Shown in pieces: positions 11,086 through 64,000 of a DNA stretch of 64,000 bases. Source of the DNA: a phage; the sequence record NC_100372.1; one strand, written 5' to 3'. The translations under genes were made by a program, and so were the position numbers. The notes under the pieces were generated by a model. That model was not told the origin of the DNA. It did not search any database and saw only the letters and a list, made by a program, of their open reading frames with translations. Numbering within the stretch: position 1 is the first letter of the stretch; every line of letters begins with the position of its first letter.

Positions 11086-11114
11086 TTGACTAATAGCATT
11101 AGATAATCTATAAT
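11086..11114 (+). promoter_or_regulatory. Sigma70-like promoter (TTGACT-17-TATAAT)
   Basis: 5/6 -35, perfect -10, 17 bp spacer. Confidence 0.55.
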
Positions 11115-11154
11115 AGTGGCTCACTTTGTTGGTGAGCCAGAAAGGGAGACAGAT

Positions 11155-37525: not shown

Positions 37526-37632
37526 GGCGTTTTCCTCTCTTCTGGTTGTTGTGTGGGCACTTTTGCCCCTTCAAGATAAATGTTACCCCACCGCCTGGCA
37601 GGTGTCAACGGTTTTTATAGTTTTTTATATGA

Positions 37633-41093: not shown

Positions 41094-41474
41094 TTAAAAA
41101 TTATCGCCGTAAATCTTTCCGCTTTCTACCCATACCACCACGCGGGGCATACTATCCCACACATCTTGTTTTAGATTGAGCGAGTGCAGTTCTTCGGTGG
41201 TGCTCATACCGGGCACGGGCTGATTGTATACTGCAAAACGACCGCCTGCATAATCATAGGCCAGGGTTAAATCACACTGGATCATCTTTTTGATCATGGC
41301 ATTAAGCATAGCGTTAGCCGCGTACTGATCTCGTTTTAATGGCAACTCTTTAATCAGTTTGCGATAGTTTTCGATATGGTCGCACACTGTTTCACGCGGA
41401 AGATCTTTCATATCTTCACGGAATGTAACCAGGTTAAACATAACGGTGTCAATAGCTTTAGTAGTGTTTTTCAT
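41094..41474 (-). CDS. Hypothetical protein
   Basis: Start at MKNTTK after AAGAGGAAAAC RBS. Confidence 0.5.
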   Translation of the reverse strand: MKNTTKAIDTVMFNLVTFREDMKDLPRETVCDHIENYRKLIKELPLKRDQYAANAMLNAMIKKMIQCDLTLAYDYAGGRFAVYNQPVPGMSTTEELHSLNLKQDVWDSMPRVVVWVESGKIYGDNF

Positions 41475-41565
41475 GATGTTTTCCTCTTTGTTTTGTGGGA
41501 GGCAAGTCATCTCGCCCCCTTGAGTTTTAAATATAGCAGGTTTTTAGATTATTGCAACACTTTAT

Positions 41566-42189
41566 TTATGAAAAACTCATCTCACCATATTCATCCACAT
41601 CAAACCGCCAATCATTGGCTTCAATAAGGCCGATCAGGTTTTCGGTAGTAAACTGTTCAAGATAGGCCTCCTCCAGGTCTACATAAACCTTGCGGGATAG
41701 CTCCCGTACCGTCTCGGTGATCAGCTCTTCCAGGTCTTCCACTTTGTTTTCTTGTTTGGCGGTCAGATCTAGCCAGGTGGTATCAATGTATCCGCTTACA
41801 GTGTTTTCATGGCTGTAATGGCTGTACTTGTCGCGTTCAACACTGGCTGATAACTCGCCATCGTGCATTGTGCCGAACAAGTGACGAATTGATCGGAACT
41901 TGGTCAGGGCCTTTACTTTACGCAAGAATTTTTCTAAATCCACGTTTTCAGCACTGATTGACGCGCCGTCACCCTGGCACCAAAAGCCGGACCAATGTAC
42001 TTCGGTATCTTCAAGGCCGTACTCTGGAAAAACTTGTTCTTTATAATATTCAATTACACTTTCTGCGAAAAAATCCTCTCCGCTGTGTTCTTCTCTTTCG
42101 CGGACCATTTCAATAGCTTTTTCTTTTTGTTCGTCGGTCAGCACGTCGAAAGATAAATTGCAACCTGTGGTAATGTTAACGGTGGTCAT
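41566..42189 (-). CDS. Hypothetical acidic protein (207 aa)
   Basis: Glu/Asp-rich, HWSGFWCQGDGASI segment; no confident family assignment. Confidence 0.55.
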   Translation of the reverse strand: MTTVNITTGCNLSFDVLTDEQKEKAIEMVREREEHSGEDFFAESVIEYYKEQVFPEYGLEDTEVHWSGFWCQGDGASISAENVDLEKFLRKVKALTKFRSIRHLFGTMHDGELSASVERDKYSHYSHENTVSGYIDTTWLDLTAKQENKVEDLEELITETVRELSRKVYVDLEEAYLEQFTTENLIGLIEANDWRFDVDEYGEMSFS

Positions 42190-42263
42190 GATATTTTCTC
42201 CTGTTTTCTTTATTAGTGGCGGGAAGTTTTCCCGCCTGTGTGTTTAATTATACTTATTGAGAT

Positions 42264-42524
42264 TTACTTGTCAACACTATTTTTTAAATTATTGTGGCGT
42301 AAAATGTTCAAGATCTCTTCAACGTCATCAACACGGCGGTAATTTTTAAACGCTACCAATTGCCCCATGATTTTAATCACTGGGCGGCCTTGCCAGTGCC
42401 CCTGGAGAAAGCGCGCCTTGACTTTATCGGTGGAGCTATCACGCCACCAAATGGCCTTGTTGTTGCAGTAGTAAAAATTATTCAGGACAACATCAACCTT
42501 ATCAAAATTTTTTAATTTACGCAT
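42264..42524 (-). CDS. Hypothetical protein
   Basis: ORF with upstream promoter. Confidence 0.5.
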   Translation of the reverse strand: MRKLKNFDKVDVVLNNFYYCNNKAIWWRDSSTDKVKARFLQGHWQGRPVIKIMGQLVAFKNYRRVDDVEEILNILRHNNLKNSVDK

Positions 42525-42730: not shown

Positions 42731-42757
42731 ATAAAAAGCCCCGCACAATGGCGGGGC
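42731..42757 (-). terminator. Intrinsic terminator (GCCCCGC-loop-GCGGGGC with TTTTTATTT on minus strand)
   Basis: Strong hairpin plus U-run immediately after gene 42766..42963. Confidence 0.65.
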
Positions 42758-43627: not shown

Positions 43628-43716
43628 GGTTTTAACTCCTCTGTATTAGTTCAGTGTTAACAGTGTAAAGTTTACTTTATTGATGGCCCTGGAGTCAAGG
43701 CCATCTAAAAATAAAC

Positions 43717-44121
43717 TTAGTAAGTTTTCAGTACTTTACCGTCCAACCTGTCAAGCTGGATCTCGATAGCTGCAGAAAACCTATTGTACACCACGTCGCC
43801 CATGGAATCCAACCAGTCTATGACGTTATACACCTGCTCTTTGTTCTTGCAGGTCCGGATCCGTTTCATGATGTAAGCCGGATCAATATTGGTACTTTCG
43901 TTGGTGTTCCCCTGTACCTGATTTGCCGTATTAGTTACATCTTTAATGGCCTTTACCACCACCTGGAAGGGCTTTAAGGTGCCTTTTGCGTTCATCTCAC
44001 GCGCTTTTGCGGCGCGGTTGTTATATGTTACACAACGGCGGCAAATGTTCACCAAATGCATGTCAATAATTTTTTCATCGTTTGCCAGTTCGTTCATGAT
44101 GCGGCGTACGTTCTTATTCAT
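43717..44121 (-). CDS. Hypothetical protein
   Basis: ORF. Confidence 0.5.
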   Translation of the reverse strand: MNKNVRRIMNELANDEKIIDMHLVNICRRCVTYNNRAAKAREMNAKGTLKPFQVVVKAIKDVTNTANQVQGNTNESTNIDPAYIMKRIRTCKNKEQVYNVIDWLDSMGDVVYNRFSAAIEIQLDRLDGKVLKTY

Positions 44122-44140
44122 GATCTTTTTCCTTTGTGTT

Positions 44141-44165
44141 GGCGGGAAACATTCCCGCCTTTTGT
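44141..44165 (+). other. Hairpin GGCGGGAA-ACAT-TTCCCGCC with T-run on the plus strand only
   Basis: Sits in the 5-prime leader of a minus-strand gene; near-identical hairpin at about 42203-42222. Confidence 0.4.
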
Positions 44166-44203
44166 GACTAGTTTACTTGAATTTTGCAGCGTGTCAACAA
44201 TTT

Positions 44204-49631: not shown

Positions 49632-49660
49632 ACAAAAATGCCCCACCCTTTCGGGTAGGG
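49632..49660 (-). terminator. Intrinsic terminator with GAAA tetraloop (GCCCUACCC-GAAA-GGGUGGGGC + U-run)
   Basis: 9-bp stem with one G-U pair, followed on the minus strand by ATTTTT; downstream of the SSB-like gene. Confidence 0.65.
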
Positions 49661-49676
49661 CTATGTTAACTAGATG

Positions 49677-51935: not shown

Positions 51936-52311
51936 TCATCAGATCTGCCATAGCGTCACCAACGAAGAGGACAACCACGTCGTTGACAGCGTCAGCATCA
52001 TCTTTATTGATGTTGCTGAATTTGGGGCACACTGCAATGACCATATAGACCCCGTTGCCCAACTGAACAGTGCGTGTAGTGCACATTAGTGTGGTGCTTG
52101 TGCCTTCTTTAAAGGCAAATCCTTGCAGACGTTCTTCCAGAGAGTCACCTGTGGATTTCAACAAGGCAAGATCGCCCAATGCGTAGGTAGTGTCCTCATA
52201 GGTCAGTCCAGAGGTCAATGTTGCCTTTCCATCAGAAACTATAATAACCCCATCGGCACCGTCAAGCTCAGAGGCTTCAAAGATATTAATATCCCAAATG
52301 TTTTTCATCAC
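51907..52311 (-). CDS. Hypothetical acidic protein
   Basis: ORF. Confidence 0.5.
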   Translation of the reverse strand: MMKNIWDINIFEASELDGADGVIIVSDGKATLTSGLTYEDTTYALGDLALLKSTGDSLEERLQGFAFKEGTSTTLMCTTRTVQLGNGVYMVIAVCPKFSNINKDDADAVNDVVVLFVGDAMADLMNAGEAANED

Positions 52312-52628
52312 GCTTCCTCGTCATCTAATGAGTTGAAGATTTCACCGAAGTATTCTAAGACTTCCAGCTCACGGGTGGTGCAGAAAACACAGTCCCCGTT
52401 GTCATCTTCGATAACGGCCTCTTTACCAAGAACATCCACTTCAAATTCGTCGTTTAACAGAACGGAACCTGTGTAAACTTTATCTGCCGTGCAGTCCCGA
52501 AAAGCAGAGTCCTTCTCCAAGTAGTCTGGCTTAACCTTGGCTTTAATTCGTTGATATTGTTTGGTCATTGCTGTGGTCCCCTTTCGTTTTGATAGGGCCA
52601 TTATATTAGGCCCTATCGCTATTGTCAA
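52308..52628 (-). CDS. Hypothetical Cys-containing protein (paralog of 52632..52886)
   Basis: Shared AFRDCT/AFKDCT and DDNGDCVFCT/DDEGDSVWCT segments. Confidence 0.5.
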   Translation of the reverse strand: MTIAIGPNIMALSKRKGTTAMTKQYQRIKAKVKPDYLEKDSAFRDCTADKVYTGSVLLNDEFEVDVLGKEAVIEDDNGDCVFCTTRELEVLEYFGEIFNSLDDEEA

Positions 52629-52631
52629 GTA

Positions 52632-52886
52632 TTAATGCTCAGGTTTTACAAAAACTACTTCGTTAACAGTGCACCAGACAGAATCTCCTTCATCATCTTT
52701 AAAGGTAAGACACTGGGCTGAGTTTTCCAACTCATCGAGCTCTTCTTGTGATAAATAGGTCCCTTCTTCCAGAAGAGCTTTTACCAGAGGGTTCTCACAA
52801 AACTCTGCTTCATAAACTGTACCGATTGTGCAATCTTTAAAAGCTCGGTCATTTGCAACGCACTCTGGCTTCAAAGTGATTTTCAT
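52632..52886 (-). CDS. Hypothetical Cys-containing protein (paralog of 52308..52628)
   Basis: See paralog. Confidence 0.5.
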   Translation of the reverse strand: MKITLKPECVANDRAFKDCTIGTVYEAEFCENPLVKALLEEGTYLSQEELDELENSAQCLTFKDDEGDSVWCTVNEVVFVKPEH

Positions 52887-52962
52887 TTTAGCAGTCTCCT
52901 CAATTATTTAAAAATCAACTCTCTGTTTGTGTGGAGCATCTTATATCCAATCTTACTTCTTG

Positions 52963-53334
52963 TCAATGACTATTTTCAATCATCCACACAGGGTCGAGGT
53001 AAATTTGTTGGCGTTTTGCCCAATGACAAACTTCATTGTACATCTGAATCTCTTTGTCTGTCAATTCACGAATAGGCTCATCTATACCCTCATTTTTGTG
53101 GTAATCCCAGTCGGCATCGATTTCCCACAACCATGACTTACGATCTTCACGCTTACGCACACAAAAGTCCCCAGGACGGCCTGCCAGTGCATTTAAGAAC
53201 TCGTTCTCCGCTCGCTCCTGAAGAATACTAAGGAGCAAAACGTTGGAGCATGACCGTAAAATATGCTTCAGCTCACAATCATCAATCTCAACTTCAATAC
53301 GTTGCTTGACTGTGTGGGTACCTTTTACTAACAT
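52963..53334 (-). CDS. Hypothetical protein
   Basis: Start at MLVKGTH after AGAGGAGG RBS. Confidence 0.5.
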   Translation of the reverse strand: MLVKGTHTVKQRIEVEIDDCELKHILRSCSNVLLLSILQERAENEFLNALAGRPGDFCVRKREDRKSWLWEIDADWDYHKNEGIDEPIRELTDKEIQMYNEVCHWAKRQQIYLDPVWMIENSH

Positions 53335-53344
53335 TCTACCTCCT

Positions 53345-53539
53345 CTATACAAACTCTGCAAGGGTTGTGTTGTTCACCGCACCACAGTAGATGGAATATC
53401 CCAACCCATTATGGTGCAGAAACCACGGCACACCTTGGTCATCCTTCACGTATACATCTCCATTTTCCGTGAAGGGCCAATACTCTTCCCCAAGGGTAAA
53501 ATACCTACTCATACCTTCAGCCAGATACTTTACTTTCAT
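53345..53539 (-). CDS. Small paralog-family protein (WF/WY motif)
   Basis: DDQGVPWFLHHNGLGYSIY resembles the next two genes. Confidence 0.45.
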   Translation of the reverse strand: MKVKYLAEGMSRYFTLGEEYWPFTENGDVYVKDDQGVPWFLHHNGLGYSIYCGAVNNTTLAEFV

Positions 53540-53763
53540 AGATCCTCTTCAACAACTACAAACTTGGCAAGTAGGGTGGTCCCATAGATATGATACTCAC
53601 CATTTGCCAGATGGGAGATATACCAGGAGATACCGTCCTCGTCTTCGATCATATTGTTCCTGCGATCCTTATCGTAATAAACCTTGTAGACCTTACCTTC
53701 TTCAAAGAATGACAGGTCTGTCATCTTTTCTTCTACAAATGTAGCTTTAACCAAAGTTGTCAT
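53536..53763 (-). CDS. Small paralog-family protein
   Basis: DEDGISWYISHLANGEYHIY. Confidence 0.45.
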   Translation of the reverse strand: MTTLVKATFVEEKMTDLSFFEEGKVYKVYYDKDRRNNMIEDEDGISWYISHLANGEYHIYGTTLLAKFVVVEEDL

Positions 53764-54044
53764 TGATCTGTCTCCTTCTTGTTGAGCCGGAACACTGCAA
53801 TAATAGCATTTCCAAGATGCAGTGTCAAATCATTCCCCAGATACCATAACATTCCACGGTCATCTTTGATGAAAGGATAACAATCCGGTGCTTTCCAGAC
53901 ATTATACACTTTGCCGACCTGAAAGAAATCAGGCCCTGTTGGAATTTTAGTACCGGGCCACACTTGAGACACCTGAACGCACTCTACCTGCATAATGACA
54001 GGGATAGTCATAGAAGTAAATGTTTTTGTTGGTTCTACTACCAT
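53760..54044 (-). CDS. Small paralog-family protein
   Basis: DDRGMLWYLGNDLTLHLG; start at MVVEPT after AGAGGAGAC RBS. Confidence 0.45.
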   Translation of the reverse strand: MVVEPTKTFTSMTIPVIMQVECVQVSQVWPGTKIPTGPDFFQVGKVYNVWKAPDCYPFIKDDRGMLWYLGNDLTLHLGNAIIAVFRLNKKETDQ

Positions 54045-54093
54045 AAAAGTCTCCTCTCTGTCTAACAACACTTCCGTGTGTTGATAGTTTACA

Positions 54094-56871
54094 TTAGTGA
54101 CAATCGCCCCAGTTACGACCGCACAAGTATTCACCTGTGATCTGGAACGGAACGCCCATCATTTTAGAAGCCTGCCAGAAGCAATGCACCACCATTTCGC
54201 CCACAGGGCTCCAGATAAGTTCAAGCTTTCCGTCATCGTTCAAGATAGGATCGTATACCGTATTTCCGTCCTTGTCAACCACTTCGTTTCCGTCCTCATT
54301 TTTGCGTGCCTTTTTGTACTTATGACCGTCGAACACATGAAGTTTAGCCTCTTGTTGGGCTTTAAATGTTTCCAGCTCTTCAATTGTGTCGAAGGTGTAT
54401 ACAGTTTTATACTTAGGGGTGTCAGGCACTTGAAGCTGATATTCGTCATGGTAATAAATAATACGACGAACACCTTCATCATACCATCCACGCTTCACCA
54501 TTTGGTGGTGCATGAGGATTCCGACCAAGTCGCACAACGATGCACCGCCATTTTGCTGATATGCATTAAGCAAAGAGTGTTTAGAGCGGGTCCAAATGGC
54601 ATGCCCGTCAAAAGAGTAGATAAATTTCTTACCTGTTGCTTCCCAGAATTTCTCCAGATCCTCTTTGCGCCCCTTAAGACCTGGGTTGGCATCCCAGAGA
54701 GCATCAATTACTCTCTGCCCCAGTTCTGGAGAGATATCCAGCATATCTGCAACTTTATCTTTTTGTGCCCCATACATAACCCCATACGTGATAGGTTTAC
54801 CATCGTTACGAGACACCTCTCTACCTGCTACTTTTGTATATGCCTCAGCATTGTTTTGGTGCGCGTCCCCGTTACTTACAACATCATAATACAGACCGTT
54901 GTCAAACTCAAAGGCACCCCAGGCCCCGATGAGCTGCTCTAAGTTGGACCCGTCAATACCGATCTCAAAGTATCCAGGAGGAACACCCCACAGACTACGC
55001 ATCTCTTTACCCATAACCACTTTAGGAGATGGTTTAGGCATGTTTGCACAAATACTATGTTTCTGTCTGGAAGTGTTTGTTAATCCAGAACTTTTAGCAG
55101 GAAGCTTGTGGTCAATCTTCAAACGTGGATGATTAAGAAGACCAGTATCTACCTTATCTTCCTTGATTGGATCAAGGACCGATCTGCGGTTTCGCAATGA
55201 TAACCACAAAACGATATCTTTAGCCATCTCTCCGTTCAATTTTTCAAGATTCGGGCACAGGTGTCCAAACGTATCTTTCAGTTGCGGAGAAGTAATAAGC
55301 GCTCTGGCTTTTCTACGTATCTTCCCAAACACTTCCTTTTTAATCCTTTCTGAGTTAGGGAAGCTTCGGAACTTGTGCACGGTTGTCTGGAACTTAGCAT
55401 CGGTTTTGTTCCAGAAGTTGATAATCAGGTCACAATACTCTGACTCTAAAAGCTCGTCCATATATGCATATACTCGTGCATCAACATCTGCATCAGGTAG
55501 AGCTTTCTTCTTGCTGTCTTTAGTTACATCCTTAGTTCTCCACATTGTCGGAAGCCAACCAGCACTGATCAGGTATCGCTTAATGTCGTCCTGGTTGCTG
55601 ATTTTCATAGGTATCTTGCAGTCCGGCATTCGCTTCTGCTGTAGATCACTTATTGCCTGATCCATTAGCTCTTTAGGTAAAGGTTGTGGTGTGGAGGTGC
55701 CCTTAATATAGCCTCTCAAGAAATCAGCCATCTTATCGGGGTCTTTGCAGCCCATCTCTTCACACCATTTTATCCCCATCTTGCTGACATCTCCTGTGGA
55801 GGTAAATGCTCGCTTAGGCGGGGCTTTGAACTCTAAAGCGCTCATGTCCACAGGATAGCCAAGCTTATCTTTTAACCATTTCCAACCATTATTGGAGATT
55901 GTCCCATCTTGGTTAAACGGCTTTTCAGGGAACTTGGGCCGCTGAGACATTGACAACTCTTTTAAAGGAAGTTGAGGTTCAACACGATCAGCGATCTCTT
56001 TCATCCACGCATCGCAACGGTCCCGTAAAGCAATAGCCCCATCTATGTCGAAATACACCCCCTGTCGAGCCTGCAGCTCCATCAGAAAGTGCTGTAACAT
56101 GCCTCGGCGTAATGCGTTCTTCCAGGTGATTTTCTTGAAGCCTTTCGGCTTCTCTTTGGCAGGATCGTACATAAAGTTCTGCATGTCAGATTTGCCGTAG
56201 AATACACCTTTTGATTCCGCTACCAACTCCTTCCAGAGCAACTCCTGGATGATAACGTCCTCGAACACACGATCCACATACTTCCACAGAGGAAGCTCAC
56301 GCCAGTCATCGATTTGAACTTTCTGGTTACCAAGGGCATAGCCCCATGCCATAAGGCCATGAGGTCCAACAGGTTGCATTTTCTTGGTAACTGGATTAAA
56401 TACTGCGTCCGGACAACCTTTTGGCAAAGGGCGGTCAGGCCACAAGATTCGACTCATTGCTAACGTATCGAACAGATTAACCTGGTGGTCGTTGATAGTC
56501 CCCATGCATTTAGGATCACGGAACATATCAAAATGAATACCGGATAATCTCTCCATCAGCATAAAGTCGTAGCTGTAGCAGTTATGACAGTTCAAAGCTG
56601 TAGGTGACCAGTCTGAGTTGCCTGTAAGCCAGCCTTCCAACTCTGAAAAATCTGCTATGCGAGCCTCAAAATCTGTATAAAGGGTCTTCTTTGCCAGAAT
56701 GAAGTTCTTAGCTTTCTCCACATCCTCTTCAGAGTAGTGTGTGCGGTCATTTAGAGGAAGGAACAGCATAAAACGGTTCTTATTCAGCTCTTTAAACAAA
56801 CCGCAGTGATAATAAAGATCTGGGTCTTCCAGCAGGCCAGAGGCCTCAAAATCGAACGACCACATGCTCAT
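54094..56871 (-). CDS. Family A DNA polymerase with N-terminal 3-prime to 5-prime exonuclease domain
   Basis: Exo I FDFEASG; motif B KPITYGVMYGAQ; motif C YYHDEYQLQV. Confidence 0.85.
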   Translation of the reverse strand: MSMWSFDFEASGLLEDPDLYYHCGLFKELNKNRFMLFLPLNDRTHYSEEDVEKAKNFILAKKTLYTDFEARIADFSELEGWLTGNSDWSPTALNCHNCYSYDFMLMERLSGIHFDMFRDPKCMGTINDHQVNLFDTLAMSRILWPDRPLPKGCPDAVFNPVTKKMQPVGPHGLMAWGYALGNQKVQIDDWRELPLWKYVDRVFEDVIIQELLWKELVAESKGVFYGKSDMQNFMYDPAKEKPKGFKKITWKNALRRGMLQHFLMELQARQGVYFDIDGAIALRDRCDAWMKEIADRVEPQLPLKELSMSQRPKFPEKPFNQDGTISNNGWKWLKDKLGYPVDMSALEFKAPPKRAFTSTGDVSKMGIKWCEEMGCKDPDKMADFLRGYIKGTSTPQPLPKELMDQAISDLQQKRMPDCKIPMKISNQDDIKRYLISAGWLPTMWRTKDVTKDSKKKALPDADVDARVYAYMDELLESEYCDLIINFWNKTDAKFQTTVHKFRSFPNSERIKKEVFGKIRRKARALITSPQLKDTFGHLCPNLEKLNGEMAKDIVLWLSLRNRRSVLDPIKEDKVDTGLLNHPRLKIDHKLPAKSSGLTNTSRQKHSICANMPKPSPKVVMGKEMRSLWGVPPGYFEIGIDGSNLEQLIGAWGAFEFDNGLYYDVVSNGDAHQNNAEAYTKVAGREVSRNDGKPITYGVMYGAQKDKVADMLDISPELGQRVIDALWDANPGLKGRKEDLEKFWEATGKKFIYSFDGHAIWTRSKHSLLNAYQQNGGASLCDLVGILMHHQMVKRGWYDEGVRRIIYYHDEYQLQVPDTPKYKTVYTFDTIEELETFKAQQEAKLHVFDGHKYKKARKNEDGNEVVDKDGNTVYDPILNDDGKLELIWSPVGEMVVHCFWQASKMMGVPFQITGEYLCGRNWGDCH

Positions 56872-56929
56872 ATACAGTTCTCCTTAAAGGGGAGGCGGTT
56901 GTACTACCCCTCCCACTCTTGGTTAAACA

Positions 56930-59008
56930 TTAAAAAGGTGTTTCGTCGTCTTCAAAACCAGGAACGTGGTTAGAGGACGGATCATCATACTGAAGATCTT
57001 CCTGTGTGTCAACAGGGTTAACAGCAGGGGTTATAACCTTATCAGCCACAACCTTGCCCACAGGTGTTTCTACAACTGCATGCTCCTGATCCTCAAACAT
57101 AGCCTGAGGTCTCCAAACAACCTCCCCACCTTCCCCATCTGTAAACATCTGCATTTCTTTGTCCCAGTACCAGTTGCTGGCATCATGGAACTTGCCTGTG
57201 TGGGGATCCATAACTAGAGTGTCTGCAATACCTAAGGTTTTTGCTGGGCGGTTTTTAAGACCTACCAGTCGGACACGTCCACGGGAACGATCCACCATCT
57301 CCTCTGCCTCTACCCCGACAACCACCCAGCTAAGTTGCTCCAATCCGGCACTACCGCGAAGGTTCTCTTTTCGTACAGGGTACCAGAAAGGTAACGGATT
57401 TCCATCCTTATCCTTCGGAGGTACAATCTCTGTGCGCTTCAGGTGAGCAATCACCAAGATAAACACATTAAACTGCTTACAGAACGCGGCTAGTTGAGTC
57501 ATAGCCATGTCAAGTTCTTTGCGCTCATCCTTAACATTAAGCCCTGAAATCACCATAGACAAGTGATCCAGCACAATGTAACGGCAGTGATACAGGCACA
57601 CCATTTGTTTAAGCTTAGTGATCAGCTCATCTACAGGAATGGAGCCGAAATGCTTGAACACTTTGATTTTTCCGGCCTTGGCCCAAGATTGATGAATCTC
57701 AGCGTGCTCCTGATCGGTCAGGAACTGACTGGGGTCTTCAACAAACTCTTTAACATCAAACCCCAGCTGGTTAGCGTACAGAGAGTTGATTGCTTCCTCA
57801 GGATCCTCTTCAAGGTGAATCAGGCACAGGCGATCATCCTCTTCATAATCATCAGCTTTAGGGCATGTTGGATCCATCAAGTATCTTGCAATGCAATGTT
57901 CCAGCTTCTTGGCTACAGTTGTTTTACCACCGCCAGACGGGCCTGTCAGCATCATCAAGGTGCCTTTGTGGAGTCCTTTCAGCATCTTCTGCAGTTTAGG
58001 GAACTCTGCACTAATATCCACGCCATTGGAAGTCTTCTTACGAAGAGATTCAATGGAGAAGTCTTCTAAATCAGATACAGCATCAGGCACATATTTGACT
58101 GGGTGACGGAACATGTTGACAATATCTTCCAGCTTTTTAGCCTTCAGCATGTCACGAATATCTTTTACACCATCAGGGTCGTTTACCTCACCTGGGTATT
58201 CCACGTGGTAAACGTTGTCAGCCATCAAAAATGCTGCGATATTATGCGTAGCTTCAACACCTTTGATAACGTGTTTTTGCTTCTCTACCTCGTTAGCTGC
58301 ATCGTTGTCCATTGCAAGGACTACTGTTCCGTAGCTACGGATAAATTTCTCATTGTTCGCAAAAGTGTCTACGGCGTTTGCACACCCGCAGTTAATTCCG
58401 ACAAAAGGCAGGCATGGTTTTCCTGCCAGATCACCGCCGTTGATAACTGCATCAATCCCATCCTGGACTTCTTTAGCCCACTGCTTCACCTTCGCCGGGG
58501 CTTTAGCATTGGTGAGAATTCCTTTTACTTGTACCTGATATGCAGCCTGCCACGCTGCAATAACATCTCCTTCCCCCTCACAAACGTTAATCTGCTTGCG
58601 GTTGTTGGAGGATGCACACAGCTTTTGACCAAACATCTGGGAGTTGGCCTTTACTATGCCGACAACCGAGAAATGGCCCCTTTGCTCTTTAGGGATTGTC
58701 CAGTCACGCTTTTTAAAGCCAGATAGATTACCGTAGCGGTCATAATACGGAAAGTAGGTGGCAGTAACAGTTACGCCATCCTCTTGGGATAGCGATGATC
58801 GTACACCAAAATATTGTGCAGCCATCAGTCCAATATTTTGTTGTGGAACAGGGACAATTTTAGTGTTTTCTAAAACAGTCTCCACAGTTTCAACTTCTTT
58901 TTCATCACGATAGTCTCGTTTCACACTTCCCCCACTTTTATACTTAGTTGCTTTCGGGTTTGGCTCACCGAAACGGTTGTATGCAGATGCCATGAATTTA
59001 CTGCCCAT
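56930..59008 (-). CDS. DNA primase/helicase fusion (TOPRIM primase + DnaB-like helicase, T7 gp4-like)
   Basis: TOPRIM VCEGEGD and VLAMDNDAANE; Walker A TGPSGGGKTT; Walker B VLDHLS; start at ATG after AAGGAGAAG RBS. Confidence 0.8.
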   Translation of the reverse strand: MGSKFMASAYNRFGEPNPKATKYKSGGSVKRDYRDEKEVETVETVLENTKIVPVPQQNIGLMAAQYFGVRSSLSQEDGVTVTATYFPYYDRYGNLSGFKKRDWTIPKEQRGHFSVVGIVKANSQMFGQKLCASSNNRKQINVCEGEGDVIAAWQAAYQVQVKGILTNAKAPAKVKQWAKEVQDGIDAVINGGDLAGKPCLPFVGINCGCANAVDTFANNEKFIRSYGTVVLAMDNDAANEVEKQKHVIKGVEATHNIAAFLMADNVYHVEYPGEVNDPDGVKDIRDMLKAKKLEDIVNMFRHPVKYVPDAVSDLEDFSIESLRKKTSNGVDISAEFPKLQKMLKGLHKGTLMMLTGPSGGGKTTVAKKLEHCIARYLMDPTCPKADDYEEDDRLCLIHLEEDPEEAINSLYANQLGFDVKEFVEDPSQFLTDQEHAEIHQSWAKAGKIKVFKHFGSIPVDELITKLKQMVCLYHCRYIVLDHLSMVISGLNVKDERKELDMAMTQLAAFCKQFNVFILVIAHLKRTEIVPPKDKDGNPLPFWYPVRKENLRGSAGLEQLSWVVVGVEAEEMVDRSRGRVRLVGLKNRPAKTLGIADTLVMDPHTGKFHDASNWYWDKEMQMFTDGEGGEVVWRPQAMFEDQEHAVVETPVGKVVADKVITPAVNPVDTQEDLQYDDPSSNHVPGFEDDETPF

Positions 59009-59792
59009 CAATTCTTCTCCTTACTACAGGCTCGTTTGCTAAGAATACAGCTCTTGCCCAGCCACGTGGTGTAAGGCTTCGAATCATCTTCGTCCTTGCA
59101 CTCTTTCCACCTAGCTTAGCGTGTTGCATGGAATAACCACTAACCACATCAACTATTTGCGGGACAGGTTTTGTGGCGGGGATTATAAATCCATTTCCTA
59201 TCCAACCGCAAGTTATTTTTGGGTAGGCATCACGTGGAGCTATAAATTCAGGAAACCATGGGTTTACATCATCCTCTGGTAAATACCCACCATAATCCGA
59301 AGGATGAAAACGGTAATCAGGTTTTCGCCACAGTGTTGACATAACTCCTACAGGGTTCTCTACATGCCACGGGCAATCGTAAATCTCTCCCAACTCTTCT
59401 GCAACCCGAGCATCTTTCACAGCATTAATTTGGATCAGAGGATCCTTAGCCAGCTTTTTCTTAAAGTGTGCAGCTCCGGATACTGCTAAATGCGTGCACG
59501 GAGGAAATGCAAGAATAAAGTCTGGAGCTGGATACATGCAAAAAGTTTCTTGAGGGAACCATGGATCAATCCAATAATCCACATAGTGAATGTTAGGATG
59601 ATCTGTTATCACCTCTGCATAACTACCGTGGTCAGCACCTTCTGCATTAAAGCACAGGCACAGGTACCCAGCTTTTGCCCAGTCAATAACTGCACCACCA
59701 GACCCGTCAAATAGACTCCACACAACACCTTTGTGGTAGTGTTCTTTGTAGATAAATTTCAATTTGCTGTCTCCTAATGCAAAAAGCCCCAC
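58998..59792 (-). CDS. DNA cytosine-5 methyltransferase-like protein (tentative)
   Basis: SLFDGSGG (motif I-like), AFPPCTHLAVSG (PC motif-like), HVENPVG (ENV-like); only 264 aa, so assignment is tentative. Confidence 0.4.
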   Translation of the reverse strand: MGLFALGDSKLKFIYKEHYHKGVVWSLFDGSGGAVIDWAKAGYLCLCFNAEGADHGSYAEVITDHPNIHYVDYWIDPWFPQETFCMYPAPDFILAFPPCTHLAVSGAAHFKKKLAKDPLIQINAVKDARVAEELGEIYDCPWHVENPVGVMSTLWRKPDYRFHPSDYGGYLPEDDVNPWFPEFIAPRDAYPKITCGWIGNGFIIPATKPVPQIVDVVSGYSMQHAKLGGKSARTKMIRSLTPRGWARAVFLANEPVVRRRIDGQ

Positions 59793-59808
59793 CCTTTCGG
59801 GCAGGGCC
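59781..59808 (-). terminator. Intrinsic terminator with GAAA tetraloop, near-identical to the one at 49632
   Basis: GCCCUGCCC-GAAA-GGGUGGGGC + UUUUU on the minus strand; coordinates may be off by 1. Confidence 0.6.
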
Positions 59809-59813
59809 TAGTG

Positions 59814-60296
59814 TTAAACCCGGATACCTATTGTATACTCGGTGGATACCAATGTCAAATCTAAATTTAAAATTTCTTGCATCTCATAGTATGCATCCAG
59901 AGTGAGATACATTTCCCCATCCTCTTCTACATACTTGTCGAGATGTTTGAGGCACTTTGGATAACTATCAAGGGCAGCTTTTAAGCACTCAAACTCCGTG
60001 CTGTTGATGAATCCTTCCATCTTAGCTACCCGTTCTGGAGTAACAATAGCACTGTAGTGAGATTTAGCTTCCTGAATGCAATGGGTCCAAGCATCAACTT
60101 TCTCTTCAAAAAGCCCGAAGAATTTCTTTTTGGTGAGTTTCAGATTTTTTAAGTGCTTAAGCACTCGGTTGCCGATTACAGCCACATCACGAAACTTAAA
60201 GATAACTTTGTCGATATCCTCGCGGCCTATTTTCACAAAGCAGGCCTTGCACATCTCGGGAGCAGCGTAGCCTACCTTCCACATAAAATCTGACAT
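59814..60296 (-). CDS. Hypothetical protein
   Basis: ORF; start verified as ATG. Confidence 0.5.
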   Translation of the reverse strand: MSDFMWKVGYAAPEMCKACFVKIGREDIDKVIFKFRDVAVIGNRVLKHLKNLKLTKKKFFGLFEEKVDAWTHCIQEAKSHYSAIVTPERVAKMEGFINSTEFECLKAALDSYPKCLKHLDKYVEEDGEMYLTLDAYYEMQEILNLDLTLVSTEYTIGIRV

Positions 60297-60308
60297 AACA
60301 CTCTCTCC

Positions 60309-60704
60309 TTATTCCTGAAAAGCAACAATATCATATGCACTTGCAGATGATCCTGGTGAAGAGTGACTCCAGTCTAGGTCATCAGAGTAGTCAGCATACT
60401 GTGCACCGCTACGTAGTTTGTATTTTACCCACTTACCTGGTGCAGGGTTTTCACCACCTTCCCATGCTTCCCAGCCTTCTGGTAGGCCATCCTGAGAGTA
60501 GTCGTCCACCTCACTAATAATCTTAGGGTTTGGCACCAAGATTCCGGCTGGTTCTTCCTTCTTAGCAAGTGTCCACACAATGTATGTGTCTGAACAGGAG
60601 CATGTCAGTAAAGTATACCCACTGTTCAGAACTTCTGAAAGCTCTTTTTCAGCATCTTCTAATTTGGTTAGGTGGTATTGGATAATCTTCACATCTGTAA
60701 TCAT
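60309..60704 (-). CDS. Hypothetical protein
   Basis: ORF. Confidence 0.5.
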   Translation of the reverse strand: MITDVKIIQYHLTKLEDAEKELSEVLNSGYTLLTCSCSDTYIVWTLAKKEEPAGILVPNPKIISEVDDYSQDGLPEGWEAWEGGENPAPGKWVKYKLRSGAQYADYSDDLDWSHSSPGSSASAYDIVAFQE

Positions 60705-61006
60705 TAGAAACCTCCTGTCTCTTCAGCAAATGCAGCCGCTGTCGTCGCTGCATCCAGATAGGACTCTAGTTCACGTGCTGCACGTTTGTAAATCGAGTGG
60801 CGCAGATCATTTGGTAACTGGTGAAAATCAACCTCTTCTCCGTTGTGGTAAACATGCACATCAGTAATCTGTCTAAATCCATAATAATCAACATCAGAAT
60901 CACGGCACTCCGGATCTGGCAACTGGACAACTGCCTGAGCTTCTACAGTGAGCATATCGTCAAGTTCGAAATCGATTTCAAAAGTGTATGGTTTATAACG
61001 CTTCAT
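60704..61006 (-). CDS. Hypothetical acidic protein
   Basis: Coupled ORF. Confidence 0.5.
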   Translation of the reverse strand: MKRYKPYTFEIDFELDDMLTVEAQAVVQLPDPECRDSDVDYYGFRQITDVHVYHNGEEVDFHQLPNDLRHSIYKRAARELESYLDAATTAAAFAEETGGF

Positions 61007-61031
61007 CGTTTGGTGCTCTCCTCAGTTTTGT

Positions 61032-61062
61032 GGGGAGGAGTTCCTCCCCCTTTTTTTTTTTT
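61032..61062 (+). terminator. Plus-strand intrinsic terminator (GGGGAGG-AGTT-CCTCCCC + T12) inside the minus-strand block
   Basis: 7-bp stem followed by 12 T on the plus strand; the minus strand has the A-run before the hairpin. Confidence 0.55.
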
Positions 61063-61076
61063 ATACTCACATCTTA

Positions 61077-61418
61077 CTACTCAAGGTCTTCAGAGTCAAG
61101 CTCAAAAAGAATCAAACTGTGCATGCCTGCAGAGAGATCAACACACCCTGCAACAATAAGGGTTTGATAGTAAGGTTCAGCACCCTCAATATCTTCGTTA
61201 AAATCCACAACAAGGTAGTCACCTTTGTTAAAGGTGTATTTGTCCGATGTAAACGCAAAACCTGCCCAGTCCCCTACTGCAGGATCTTTATCAGTCACCT
61301 TTGTTAGCAGTAGATCTTTTTCACGGGATCTTTTAGTAAAATCGTGAATCACAACATCCTTCTCTTCAGGAGTCGGATTGCCACACACGTAGTTAACGAT
61401 ATTTCTCCACAAACTCAT
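61077..61418 (-). CDS. Hypothetical protein
   Basis: ORF. Confidence 0.5.
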   Translation of the reverse strand: MSLWRNIVNYVCGNPTPEEKDVVIHDFTKRSREKDLLLTKVTDKDPAVGDWAGFAFTSDKYTFNKGDYLVVDFNEDIEGAEPYYQTLIVAGCVDLSAGMHSLILFELDSEDLE

Positions 61419-62785
61419 ACGTCCCCCTTTTCTGCTCTAGTTTCAAAATCTTTCCTGACTTTCTCGTCTAAGCCAGGGAAAGTTGTATTATAAAACTCTA
61501 CGACTCTCGGGTCAACAATAATATCCACCTCTCTTAATGGACGCAACAAGTTTATTCCTTGTATCGTCTTAACCCGACTCAAGGCAACATACGTCATTCC
61601 GGGAGAGAAAGCTCCGTTCTTTCCGAGGTCTAGGTTGTAACAATCTAACGTAAGTCCTTGACTTTTGTGCGATGTTACTGCGTACCCAGATTTCAAAGGA
61701 AGTTGCTCATAAGACCCGATCACAACCCTCTCTATGAACTTCTCCATCTTCCTTTCGGCAATATTGTACCTCTGGGAAGGTTTGTACTCGTTATTCTCCC
61801 ACAATCTCGGCTCAATTTCAACCTGTGTCCCGTCTTCCAGCTCAACCACCACAGACTTGGTCTTGAATTTTACCACTGTGGCGCGTGTCCCGTTGACATA
61901 GTACGGAACTTTGTGTGTCGGGTCAACATCGTTTGAGGTTATCATAACCTTCATCCCTATCTTCAGCCTCATTTCCTGCTCCACAGGCAGTGTGGAGGGG
62001 AACTTACCTTTCATTTTACCAATGTAGGTCTTCTCTGGGGCCTTGATGGCATCATAGAAACGTCTGTTCACCTCCTCTGCTTGCTTATTGGTGGCACAGA
62101 TGGTCAAGGCATCTGTTGGGACACCACCATGATAGCAACGAGTGTTAAGCTCTGCTACAACCTCTTTTATGCGACGACCTTCACGAACACAGTTCAACAT
62201 TGTGGCGAAGCGAACAGATTCCTGACGGAACTGGTCTACTAATGCTATATTGTGAAGATTAAGATCCTCCCAAGATTTTGTATAGCAACACAGGTCTGTG
62301 TGGTAGAAGTTGAAGTAGGCTTCTTTCTCCATAGAAGAGACAACTGGGGGTGCTTGGTAGAAATCTCCAAACAATAACACCTGAATGCCTCCGAAAGGTT
62401 TGTCATTTTTCCGAAGAAAGCGGAGTTTTCTATCCATCTCTATGAACTTGTCAGCACGGATCATAGAGATTTCATCGATAATTAGGATGGTAAATGCCTT
62501 GCTTTTCAGAGGCTTTGCTGTTTTTGCCCTTATTGCTGTCCAGTCTGACTCCATGCTCACACCTGCGGCAAGATCGAAAGTTCGGTGCGCTGTTGCTCCA
62601 TTAACGTTTAAAGCGGCTACCCCTGTCGGGGCAACCGTTATGCAAGAGTCTCCATACATGGACTGGATCATGTTGATAAGATATGTCTTCCCGGTTCCAC
62701 CAGGTCCACTTACGAAGACATTCTCACCGCTCATGATTGCAACAAGGGCAGCATCTGTGCCTACATCGTACTGCCCTTTTTCCAT
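61415..62785 (-). CDS. SF1 DNA helicase, Dda/Pif1/RecD-like
   Basis: Walker A VSGPGGTGKTY, motif Ia VAPTGVAA, Walker B IIDEISMI. Confidence 0.75.
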   Translation of the reverse strand: MEKGQYDVGTDAALVAIMSGENVFVSGPGGTGKTYLINMIQSMYGDSCITVAPTGVAALNVNGATAHRTFDLAAGVSMESDWTAIRAKTAKPLKSKAFTILIIDEISMIRADKFIEMDRKLRFLRKNDKPFGGIQVLLFGDFYQAPPVVSSMEKEAYFNFYHTDLCCYTKSWEDLNLHNIALVDQFRQESVRFATMLNCVREGRRIKEVVAELNTRCYHGGVPTDALTICATNKQAEEVNRRFYDAIKAPEKTYIGKMKGKFPSTLPVEQEMRLKIGMKVMITSNDVDPTHKVPYYVNGTRATVVKFKTKSVVVELEDGTQVEIEPRLWENNEYKPSQRYNIAERKMEKFIERVVIGSYEQLPLKSGYAVTSHKSQGLTLDCYNLDLGKNGAFSPGMTYVALSRVKTIQGINLLRPLREVDIIVDPRVVEFYNTTFPGLDEKVRKDFETRAEKGDV

Positions 62786-63990
62786 TACGCCTCCTCGTAG
62801 ATAATGTCGATAGTATTACCGTCGCGGTCAACCACGTACTCAATTGGGTCGCCATCTTTGCGCGATTCTGGAGCTACTACGATTTCGTAGCGGCATGCAC
62901 GGCACTTGGCGCTGTTGTGTTGGTAAGGTACACTAACTACATCGGCAGGGTCAACCATAACCGTCATCACAGTTCCGTAGCTCTTTGCATACTCTTTGCT
63001 GGCACAGTGCAGGCCATAAGAGCATGCAGCTTCCGGATCATCCTCTACAAAGTTACGAGGCATGGATACAAAAGCCCCCTGGTATTGTGGGACTTTACCA
63101 CTGTGCCAATCCACCCACTTGTCGCCGTTAAACTGAACCCCTTTGTAGCAAATGATTCGACCATCTTCTGCAATCTGAATGTCGTTTGCCTGCATAAAAT
63201 CGTAGAGCATGTTTACAGATTTTGCAGAAGGATTGCGTAGCAGGCGAACGAGGAATTTCACATAGCGGTCATCCAGTGTTCCGTCTGCATAATCTTTCTC
63301 AATTTTCTTTGCAATGGTGGATCGCATCTCTACACCGTAGTAGTAGAGCTTACCGTCTTTCATGATCAGGTTGTCTGCAAGTGTGGTGAACTCATTCTTG
63401 CGTTCCAGCCAGACAAGGATTTCACCAATTGCCTCGTCATATTCCTGAACAGAGATATGGTCGAAAACTTTCTGGTAAACTTCCTCACTTTCACTGCGGC
63501 GAATTTCAAAAATACCTTCGTTGCAGGTGATCTGGAGGAGTTCCCCGCAAATAACCACCAAAGGCTCGATGCTTCGGGTCTGTTGCTGAGACACACTGCT
63601 CACCACCTCCAGCACCGGGTCTTTTACTTCTACTAAAGGTTCTTCTGACTTGATTGCTACCCCAGTGAACCCTACACCGTGAACAACACACAGTGGATAT
63701 ACCACACCCCAACGTTTAACGGAACCTTCTCCTAAATCTAAGATCATGGCGTACTTACCGTTATCTTCCAGCCCATATCGAAATAAACGGGCCTCTTCAC
63801 GGGTTTCAAAATCCTCACGGGTGTAGCAGACGCTGTCACGGTCAGGATCGAACAACTCTGGGGCACCTACTGCCAGTGTCCAGGTTGTGTTACCTTTCTC
63901 AATAGCGCATGTGAAACCCTTCTTCTCAAGCTCTGCACGGCGGTCACGTGCTTCTTTACGAGTTTTGAAATGTTCGTAGATGAAAATCAT
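62785..63990 (-). CDS. Hypothetical protein with duplicated N-terminal segment
   Basis: 401 aa; two similar N-terminal segments (FKTRKEARDRRAELEKKGF / FETREEARLFRYGLEDNGKY); no family recognised. Confidence 0.55.
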   Translation of the reverse strand: MIFIYEHFKTRKEARDRRAELEKKGFTCAIEKGNTTWTLAVGAPELFDPDRDSVCYTREDFETREEARLFRYGLEDNGKYAMILDLGEGSVKRWGVVYPLCVVHGVGFTGVAIKSEEPLVEVKDPVLEVVSSVSQQQTRSIEPLVVICGELLQITCNEGIFEIRRSESEEVYQKVFDHISVQEYDEAIGEILVWLERKNEFTTLADNLIMKDGKLYYYGVEMRSTIAKKIEKDYADGTLDDRYVKFLVRLLRNPSAKSVNMLYDFMQANDIQIAEDGRIICYKGVQFNGDKWVDWHSGKVPQYQGAFVSMPRNFVEDDPEAACSYGLHCASKEYAKSYGTVMTVMVDPADVVSVPYQHNSAKCRACRYEIVVAPESRKDGDPIEYVVDRDGNTIDIIYEEA

Positions 63991-64000
63991 CTTGGTCTCC

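Follow-up and report, generated by a model that had tools for sequence, protein, structure and literature searches.

PeSL (promoter-early stem-loop) cassettes are known from the T4-type phages RB49/phi1, PST and nt-1 (Arbiol et al. 2010, PMC2839356; Comeau et al. 2014, PMC4122927). In these cassettes AT-rich DNA containing the stop codon of the upstream gene is followed by a sigma70 promoter, a Shine-Dalgarno sequence (SD) and a start codon, and the stem-loop can occupy any of five positions; copies recur between small genes, where they bring about gene indels (Arbiol et al., PMC2839356). A second body of work concerns the 5' end of the message: RppH and RNase E require at least two unpaired 5' nucleotides and prefer three or more, RppH is blocked by a 5'-terminal stem-loop (PMC8833179), and a further paper describes an obstacle to RNase E approaching from the 5' end (PMC11194081). 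We compared three GC-rich hairpins of an rV5-like phage with both systems. Stabilisation by 5' stem-loops was reportedly found by Emory, Bouvet and Belasco in 1992, and work on ompA is said to have been to the same effect.

The window (the whole stretch of 64 kb of phage DNA that was analysed) is 94-98% identical to rV5-like E. coli myoviruses of the genus Vequintavirus, with vB_EcoM-ECP26 as the best match. Homology with annotated relatives identifies the block around position 61032 as the early and replication region, on the minus strand. In order, it contains rIIA, rIIB, helicase (61415-62785), a 113-aa gene, the hairpin, small genes, cytosine methyltransferase, primase/helicase and DNA polymerase, followed by a long run of small genes of unknown function. 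The annotated neighbours in relatives are all located on the minus strand, as the initial annotation had stated for the genes surrounding the hairpins. PHROGs returned no function for any gene flanking the cassettes described below, and Rfam gave no family match anywhere in the 64-kb window. As a side observation on host assignment, 16 GenBank records carry the name 'Campylobacter phage', with C. jejuni as host, and share about 90% identity or more with these E. coli rV5-like phages; the attribution of these records to C. jejuni looks doubtful.

The hairpin at 61032-61049 reads GGGGAGG-AGTT-CCTCCCC on the plus strand, a perfect stem of 7 bp with 6 G:C pairs, and is followed by C and by T12 at 61051-61062, which bears out the 7-bp GC stem with T12 reported earlier. 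Two similar hairpins with a spacer of four nucleotides had been placed at about 42203 and 44141. Both GGCGGGAA/TTCCCGCC pairs exist, but the first is found at 42218-42236 and the spacer is 3 nt long; the pattern GGCGGGAA-N4-TTCCCGCC gave zero matches even at 3 mismatches. Nor do both sites carry the plus-side T-run ascribed to them, as there is only TTTTG at 44160-44164 and none at 42237 (TGTGTGTTT). Their position just upstream of a minus-strand ribosome binding site holds for all three, with SD and ATG 6-15 nt downstream of each hairpin. Perfect stems of at least 7 bp with at least 5 GC occur 14 times in the 64 kb, compared with 2.55 +/- 1.5 expected from dinucleotide shuffles. The stems of 7-8 bp have energies of -13 to -15 kcal/mol, and in folds of the predicted leaders (z = -3.2 to -3.9) the hairpin is the sole stable structure, leaving SD and ATG open. 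The features of the minus-strand block are collected in Table 1.

Table 1. Promoters, hairpins, translation starts and terminators of the minus-strand block in window coordinates.
Feature	Position	Strand	Basis or remark
Promoter-like TTGACT-17-TAAGAT, 9/12	61071..61099	-	also PhagePromoter call in the Gotham record
A12+G on the gene strand (C+T12 on the plus strand)	61050..61062	-	alignment with relatives, A3 there
Leader hairpin GGGGAGG-AACU-CCUCCCC, 7 bp	61032..61049	-	sequence, leader fold, relatives
SD GAGGAG (61023..61018) and ATG (61006..61004) of 100-aa gene 60704..61006	61004..61023	-	unpaired in predicted leader fold
Canonical co-directional terminator with U-run (rV5 t232)	59784..59809	-	contrast to the hairpins
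Canonical terminator (rV5 t213)	49661..49640	-	UUUUU tail
Sigma70 promoter TTGACA-16-TAAACT (rV5 P194), 10/12	44170..44197	-	hairpin 10 nt downstream
Leader hairpin GGCGGGAA-UGU-UUCCCGCC, 8 bp	44141..44159	-	sequence, leader fold
SD AAGGA and ATG of 134-aa gene 43717..44121	44119..44134	-	sequence
Other subclass: stem-loop TGGCC-[TTGACT]CCAG-GGCCA overlapping the -35 of TTGACT-18-TAAACT	43669..43729	-	
Canonical terminator (third site)	42757..42738	-	UUUUU tail
Consensus sigma70 promoter TTGACA-16-TATAAT, 12/12 (rV5 P185)	42247..42274	-	hairpin 10 nt downstream
Leader hairpin GGCGGGAA-AAC-UUCCCGCC, 8 bp	42218..42236	-	sequence, leader fold
SD AGGAG and ATG of 207-aa gene 41566..42189	42187..42202	-	sequence
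Fourth cassette: TTGCAA-16-TATATT, 10 nt, hairpin GGGGGCGAG-AUGA-CUUGCCUCC (41519..41498, two G.U), SD, ATG 41474	41498..41557	-	
Fifth cassette: TTGACA-17-TAACAT (rV5 P168), 11 nt, short hairpin GGGCA-AAAG-UGCCC, ACACAA leader, SD, ATG	37555..37608	-	

A sigma70-type promoter precedes each of the three hairpins by 10-11 nt on the gene strand, the 61032 site being counted as it stands in relatives, and each hairpin is followed by an A/C-rich leader, SD and ATG. P185 and P194 had earlier been predicted independently by the rV5 authors. The promoters are closely interlocked with the ends of the upstream genes. P194 starts 7 nt past the stop codon (44204) of a 132-aa gene, the stop codon of an 86-aa gene (42264) sits between the -35 and -10 of P185, and at 61071..61099 the TAG stop of the 113-aa gene (61079..61077) abuts the -10 hexamer downstream of it. 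AT-rich DNA precedes the 12/12 and 10/12 promoters (AAAAATAGTG and AATAAAAATTG). The promoter at 61032 is the weakest of them, and its conservation is uninformative because it lies largely within coding sequence. An extended -10 or T4-late-like TATAAA promoter was considered at this site and rejected, as a -35 is missing, the TG is in the wrong place and, in relatives, transcription would begin within the stem. Judged by these features, the elements appear to be PeSL-like cassettes with 5' leader hairpins in Vequintavirinae, undescribed but unsurprising. Of the roles that had been suggested for the hairpins, that of leader stabilisers fits the evidence best. We regard it as moderately probable that the three hairpins serve as 5'-proximal stabilisers of early mRNAs within these minus-strand cassettes.

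The most conspicuous feature of the 61032 site, its T12 tail, is peculiar to this genome. Among the genomes compared, only the window carries a 10-nt insertion at this site, AAAAAAAAAG (A9+G on the gene strand). In the aligned Gotham and LL12 genomes the same hairpin is preceded on the gene strand by TATAAA, not by TATA12G. A3 was found in 11 of 11 relatives read directly (Gotham, LL12, HMD-6, Alma, two IMG/VR contigs, three metagenome genomes and others), where the plus-strand sequence after the stem is TTTATAC. Blastn of 60960-61140 against 116 related GenBank records gave none reaching 95% identity, and among the 60 GenBank matches listed all were 8-10 nt shorter over this interval. A scan of metagenomes for an A-run followed by the hairpin gave no match. 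T12 is the only A/T homopolymer of at least 8 nt in the window, and the hairpin itself is kept in all relatives read, with the loop AACT or CACT. Because of the private insertion, the gap between promoter and hairpin at 61032 is 21 nt in the window as compared to 11 nt in relatives, and the predicted 5' overhang of the transcript grows to about 14 nt.

These findings bear directly on the proposal that the hairpins are plus-strand intrinsic terminators halting antisense transcription through the minus-strand block. In the window, 61032-61062 has all sequence features of such a terminator (hairpin of -14.4 kcal/mol, C, U12), and the TTTTG tail after 44141 is kept in most relatives. However, T12 is found in none of the relatives compared, there is no T-run at 42218 nor in the cassettes of Seunavirus, and no promoter-like site above 9/12 is present on the plus strand at 52000-64000. 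Moreover, G.U pairs of related hairpins become A.C mismatches in plus-strand RNA, and the hairpins follow minus-strand promoters at a fixed distance. The likeness to intrinsic terminators is limited to a GC-rich stem of 7-8 bp, a short loop and, at 61032 in this genome, the plus-strand T12; a gene-strand U-tract is missing, the plus-strand tail is unconserved and no plus-strand transcription unit to end is apparent. We thus consider termination of antisense transcription highly improbable; a conserved role of this kind is not supported and, as a conserved function, is already largely refuted. The plus-strand T-runs appear to be merely the complement of an A-rich initial transcribed sequence, and T12 would make a terminator-shaped sequence on the non-coding strand only incidentally, as a side effect of the insertion. 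What looks like a textbook terminator running backwards should not be over-read, since a private insertion produced it incidentally.

On the gene strand the hairpins might act as co-directional attenuators or terminators, stopping or cutting transcription that arrives from the upstream minus-strand genes and thereby insulating the small early genes, as proposed for PeSL. Several observations are in keeping with this: the hairpins are intergenic, 25-45 nt past the upstream stop codon, the promoters overlap the upstream gene ends so that no space is left for a terminator before them, and a PeSL stem-loop lowered lacZ expression about as much as rrnB T1 (PMC2839356). The vB_Eco_Alma record likewise labels the homologues of the 61032 and 44141 hairpins as gene-strand terminators. 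The gene-strand tails of the three hairpins (ACAAAACU, AACACAAA and ACUAAUAA), however, contain no U-tract, whereas the canonical terminators in the same block do (Table 1). Such tails are A/C-rich, with at least 5 T in 8 nt in only 2 of 45 cassette rows. The 20 ARNold terminators of the rV5 authors omit both GGCGGGAA hairpins and the homologue of 61032. An efficient terminator past the predicted start would also abort the cassette's own transcripts, and the fixed spacing of 9-11 nt from the -10 would be unnecessary for this role. A terminating function on the gene strand is in our view unlikely. The existing annotation is now inconsistent, with the rV5 authors ignoring the hairpins and vB_Eco_Alma calling them terminators; a promoter-proximal leader hairpin would offer a consistent reading of early-gene expression in a group widely used in E. 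coli O157 biocontrol and therapy. The terminator t232 itself lies close to a promoter: an 11/12 sigma70 promoter (rV5 P231) is found only 20 nt upstream of this U-run-bearing terminator (59784-59858), and transcripts from P231 should, from this arrangement, meet the terminator almost at once.

We found that the cassette design is not limited to the three flagged sites. Between 37.5 and 61.1 kb there are five cassettes of the leader-hairpin design and one of another subclass (Table 1). When gaps of 6-14 nt were scanned in Vequintavirus, Seunavirus and two other myovirus contigs, promoter and hairpin were separated by 9-11 nt in 40 of 42 rows, many of which are orthologues and not independent cases; an unrestricted scan of 0-30 nt gave 9-12 nt for 5 of 7 gaps. 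In Vequintavirus the hairpins always begin 10-11 nt after the -10. The hairpin is not a general requirement of early promoters, as 48 of the 53 promoter-like sites in the window are without one. Seunavirus (4MG, LNA4, GAP31 and KE22), a separate genus, shows the same design with gaps of 9-10 nt, and in large myovirus contigs (L063, which is 4MG, L070 and L091) the palindrome GGCGGGAA-N3-TTCCCGCC, without gene-strand U-run, lies 9-12 nt after a promoter. Further loci were sought by protein-guided retrieval from IMG/VR, which yielded only 2 and 8 loci, mostly unrelated; the 134-aa gene is limited to the genus. A distant orthologue of the 61032 hairpin after the helicase was found in none of Seunavirus, Mydovirus, Certrevirus and TH18, where the genes are tightly packed with no intergenic element.

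Two further sites deserve mention. In the fourth cassette the mechanically called ORF 41094..41510 starts at an ATG inside the hairpin (41519..41498), and its PHROG profile begins at residue 13; the ATG at 41474..41472, which is preceded by an SD, is probably the true start. On the plus strand, 11086-11139 carries TTGACT-17-TATAAT (rV5 P107), 2 nt, an 8-bp hairpin TGGCTCAC...GTGAGCCA, SD and ATG. The geometry differs here, as the start of transcription would fall inside the stem.

Comparison of orthologous cassettes shows that pairing rather than sequence is conserved. In the orthologous Seunavirus cassette A the stem is GCCGGGA/TCCCGGC in 4MG and GCCAGGG/CCCTGGC in KE22, which amounts to two compensatory double changes, and in Seunavirus cassette B a G:C pair was gained on both arms while a G.U was kept. 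Within Vequintavirus, MiataMamis has at the P194 position a different 9-bp stem, GGCGGUUGA-UAC-UCAGCCGCC, with one G.U, and the isim orthologue of the 44141 hairpin has suffered a 1-nt deletion that leaves 7 bp. These changes were read directly from orthologues anchored on their flanks, since MAFFT either places the difference in length within the 5' arm or aligns the replaced stem wrongly, and an alignment of selected hairpins anchored on the stem would be circular. At P185 the L062 orthologue reads GGTGGGAA...TTCCCGCC (as RNA GGUGGGAA...UUCCCGCC), with a G.U that can pair only on the gene strand. As gene-strand RNA the fourth-cassette hairpin gains 6.7 kcal/mol in stability, and altogether 6 hairpins are more stable on that strand by at least 2.8 kcal/mol as against 1 in the opposite direction; this asymmetry favours gene-strand RNA but is suggestive only, as the count is biased by a search for hairpins on the gene strand, and the cases are not all independent. 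In the P194 hairpin the loop (44149-44151) reads TGT on the gene strand of the window and ACA in L062 (3240-3242), and isim is also ACA-like. TGT and ACA are exact reverse complements, which is what inversion of the loop, or template switching within the palindrome, would be expected to produce. In cassette A the spacer between -35 and -10 contains a second small hairpin, GGCC-GAAA-GGCC in KE22 (L143) and CGGC-AAGAAAA-GCCG in 4MG (L141), which resembles the commonest PeSL subclass.

The palindromes could instead act as DNA, as operators at about +4 to +22 that bind a dimeric repressor of phage or host and switch off a group of early promoters. Their position relative to the start is like that of lacO, two promoters 2 kb apart have identical arms GGCGGGAA/TTCCCGCC around unconstrained centres, and the core CGGGA...TCCCG recurs after promoters in Seunavirus, L070 and L091. 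Against this, orthologous stems change by compensatory substitutions and differ from each other, arm lengths and spacer lengths vary (loops of 3 to 5 nt), and dyad symmetry of a conserved duplex sequence is not seen; G.T 'pairs' break the symmetry in DNA. The other cassettes have unrelated stems (GGGGAGG, GGGGGCGAG, GGGCA), and most occurrences of GGCGGGAA-N3-TTCCCGCC elsewhere, in viral contigs of many unrelated phages, are ordinary terminators with a T7 tail. An operator function is accordingly judged decidedly improbable. The hairpins of GGCGGGAA type, with the core CGGGA...TCCCG at the same position after the start in two genera and two myovirus contigs, may also be sites for an RNA-binding protein or nuclease of phage or host that co-ordinates an early-gene regulon, in place of passive stabilisers; we hold this to be very unlikely. 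If it were true, the control might be, for example, timed shut-off or stabilisation, and the A12 insertion at 61032 would be a natural mutant uncoupling one cassette.

A stabilising leader hairpin, the reading we favour, would work as follows. The cassette consists of an upstream stop in AT-rich DNA, a sigma70-type -35/-10, a gap of 9-11 nt, a GC-rich stem-loop of 7-9 bp, an unstructured A/C-rich leader, SD and ATG. Host RNA polymerase would start about 7-8 nt past the -10, which would place the hairpin at about nt +2/+5 to +22 of the early mRNA, where it would act as RNA. As the hairpin is without U-tract, transcripts from its own promoter would not be terminated by it. A stem-loop a few nucleotides from the 5' end would hinder decay that depends on the 5' end (by RppH, then RNase E) and would also obstruct RNase E coming from that end, so that the downstream early message would live longer while the SD stays free. 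The hairpin may in addition damp upstream read-through or stabilise the 3' ends of upstream RNAs. We infer this function because RppH and RNase E need unpaired 5' nucleotides and RppH is blocked by a stem-loop at the 5' terminus. With a start at one or another purine 6-9 nt past the -10, the predicted 5' overhang would range from 1 to 5 nt. Protection may be partial as a consequence: the modal start 7 nt past the -10 would leave 3-5 nt unpaired, which is borderline for full protection against RppH and RNase E, and better protection would require a start at the conserved CA(A) immediately ahead of the stem. A literature search returned no transcript-mapping data for Vequintavirus.

In comparison with the stem-loops of the ompA and papA 5' UTRs, the hairpins share a simple, stable structure near the (here predicted) 5' end followed by an open SD, as well as a sequence that is free to vary while pairing is kept. 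Conservation of structure and not of sequence, as in ompA, is indeed found here in the form of compensatory double changes, a paired insertion and stem replacement. They differ in that the predicted overhang may exceed the length that allows full protection; in a stabiliser of ompA type the hairpin would be expected to lie about 0-4 nt from the 5' end. With a strong promoter, a 5' hairpin and an open SD, the cassettes would be compact natural parts that could be reused in engineering. The 61032 hairpin has arms that are themselves SD-like (GGAGG) and anti-SD-like (CCUCC) (61018-61049). CUCCUC in its 3' arm is the perfect complement of the SD GAGGAG that follows, so that an alternative pairing might sequester the SD.

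Mainly for 61032 there is a further alternative, an intercistronic processing or stability element in a long polycistronic mRNA, which would hold up 3' exonucleases or cause an endonuclease to cut nearby and would need no local promoter. The hairpin lies within the gene string rIIA-rIIB-helicase...primase-polymerase, is flanked by single-stranded A-rich RNA, and its promoter match is only 9/12; in view of this weak match, the RNase processing site considered from the outset may apply to 61032. RNase III can be dismissed as the enzyme, as stems of 7-9 bp are too short for its sites, the 7-bp stem of 61032 by far. The spacing to TTGACT-17-TAAGAT is the same as in cassettes with consensus promoters, and the tightly packed genes of other genera carry no orthologue. 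We consider this reading distinctly unlikely. Taken as a leader hairpin, 61032 joins the other cassettes, whose relation to PeSL is discussed below.

The likeness to PeSL rests on sequence features; promoter and attenuator activity as well as mini-circles are known from the T4-type cassettes. Shared are the upstream stop in AT-rich DNA, consensus sigma70 -35/-10 elements, a GC-rich stem-loop with occasional G.T, and SD and start codon at its 3' end. A strong promoter with AT-rich, stop-bearing upstream DNA is found at the 12/12 and 10/12 sites, while 61032 has only 9/12. The motif is repeated among small early-region genes of unknown function, and the cassettes flank gene indels. They differ from PeSL in lineage (Vequintavirinae, not T4-type) and in the position of the stem-loop, which in PeSL is mostly located between or overlapping -35 and -10 and hence outside its own transcript, whereas the flagged hairpins lie 9-11 nt past the -10 within the predicted transcript. 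The subclass overlapping the -35 is present here too (43669-43729).

Between close relatives, cassettes are found at the boundaries of indels and replacements. The window is without the module ORF193-P192-ORF192 of rV5 (about 630 bp). In rV5 both edges of this module (L132 2993-3053 and 3625-3685) match the 61 nt at 43729..43669, so that one copy is present in the window and two in rV5; this is the pattern that recombination between cassette repeats leaves behind. The P185 and P192 cassettes are paralogues. As described for PeSL, the repeated cassettes act as recombination substrates by which small genes are added or deleted, and gene shuffling mediated by cassettes, so far described only for T4-type phages, also operates in Vequintavirinae. 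The comparison with relatives shows this evolutionary part. An indel is found right after the 61032 cassette as well: an adenine methyltransferase gene that is present there in most relatives is missing in the window, and the indel extends exactly between the two start codons, flanked by AAAYGATGA as microhomology (window 61002-61010; L006 18660-18700 and 19990-20010).
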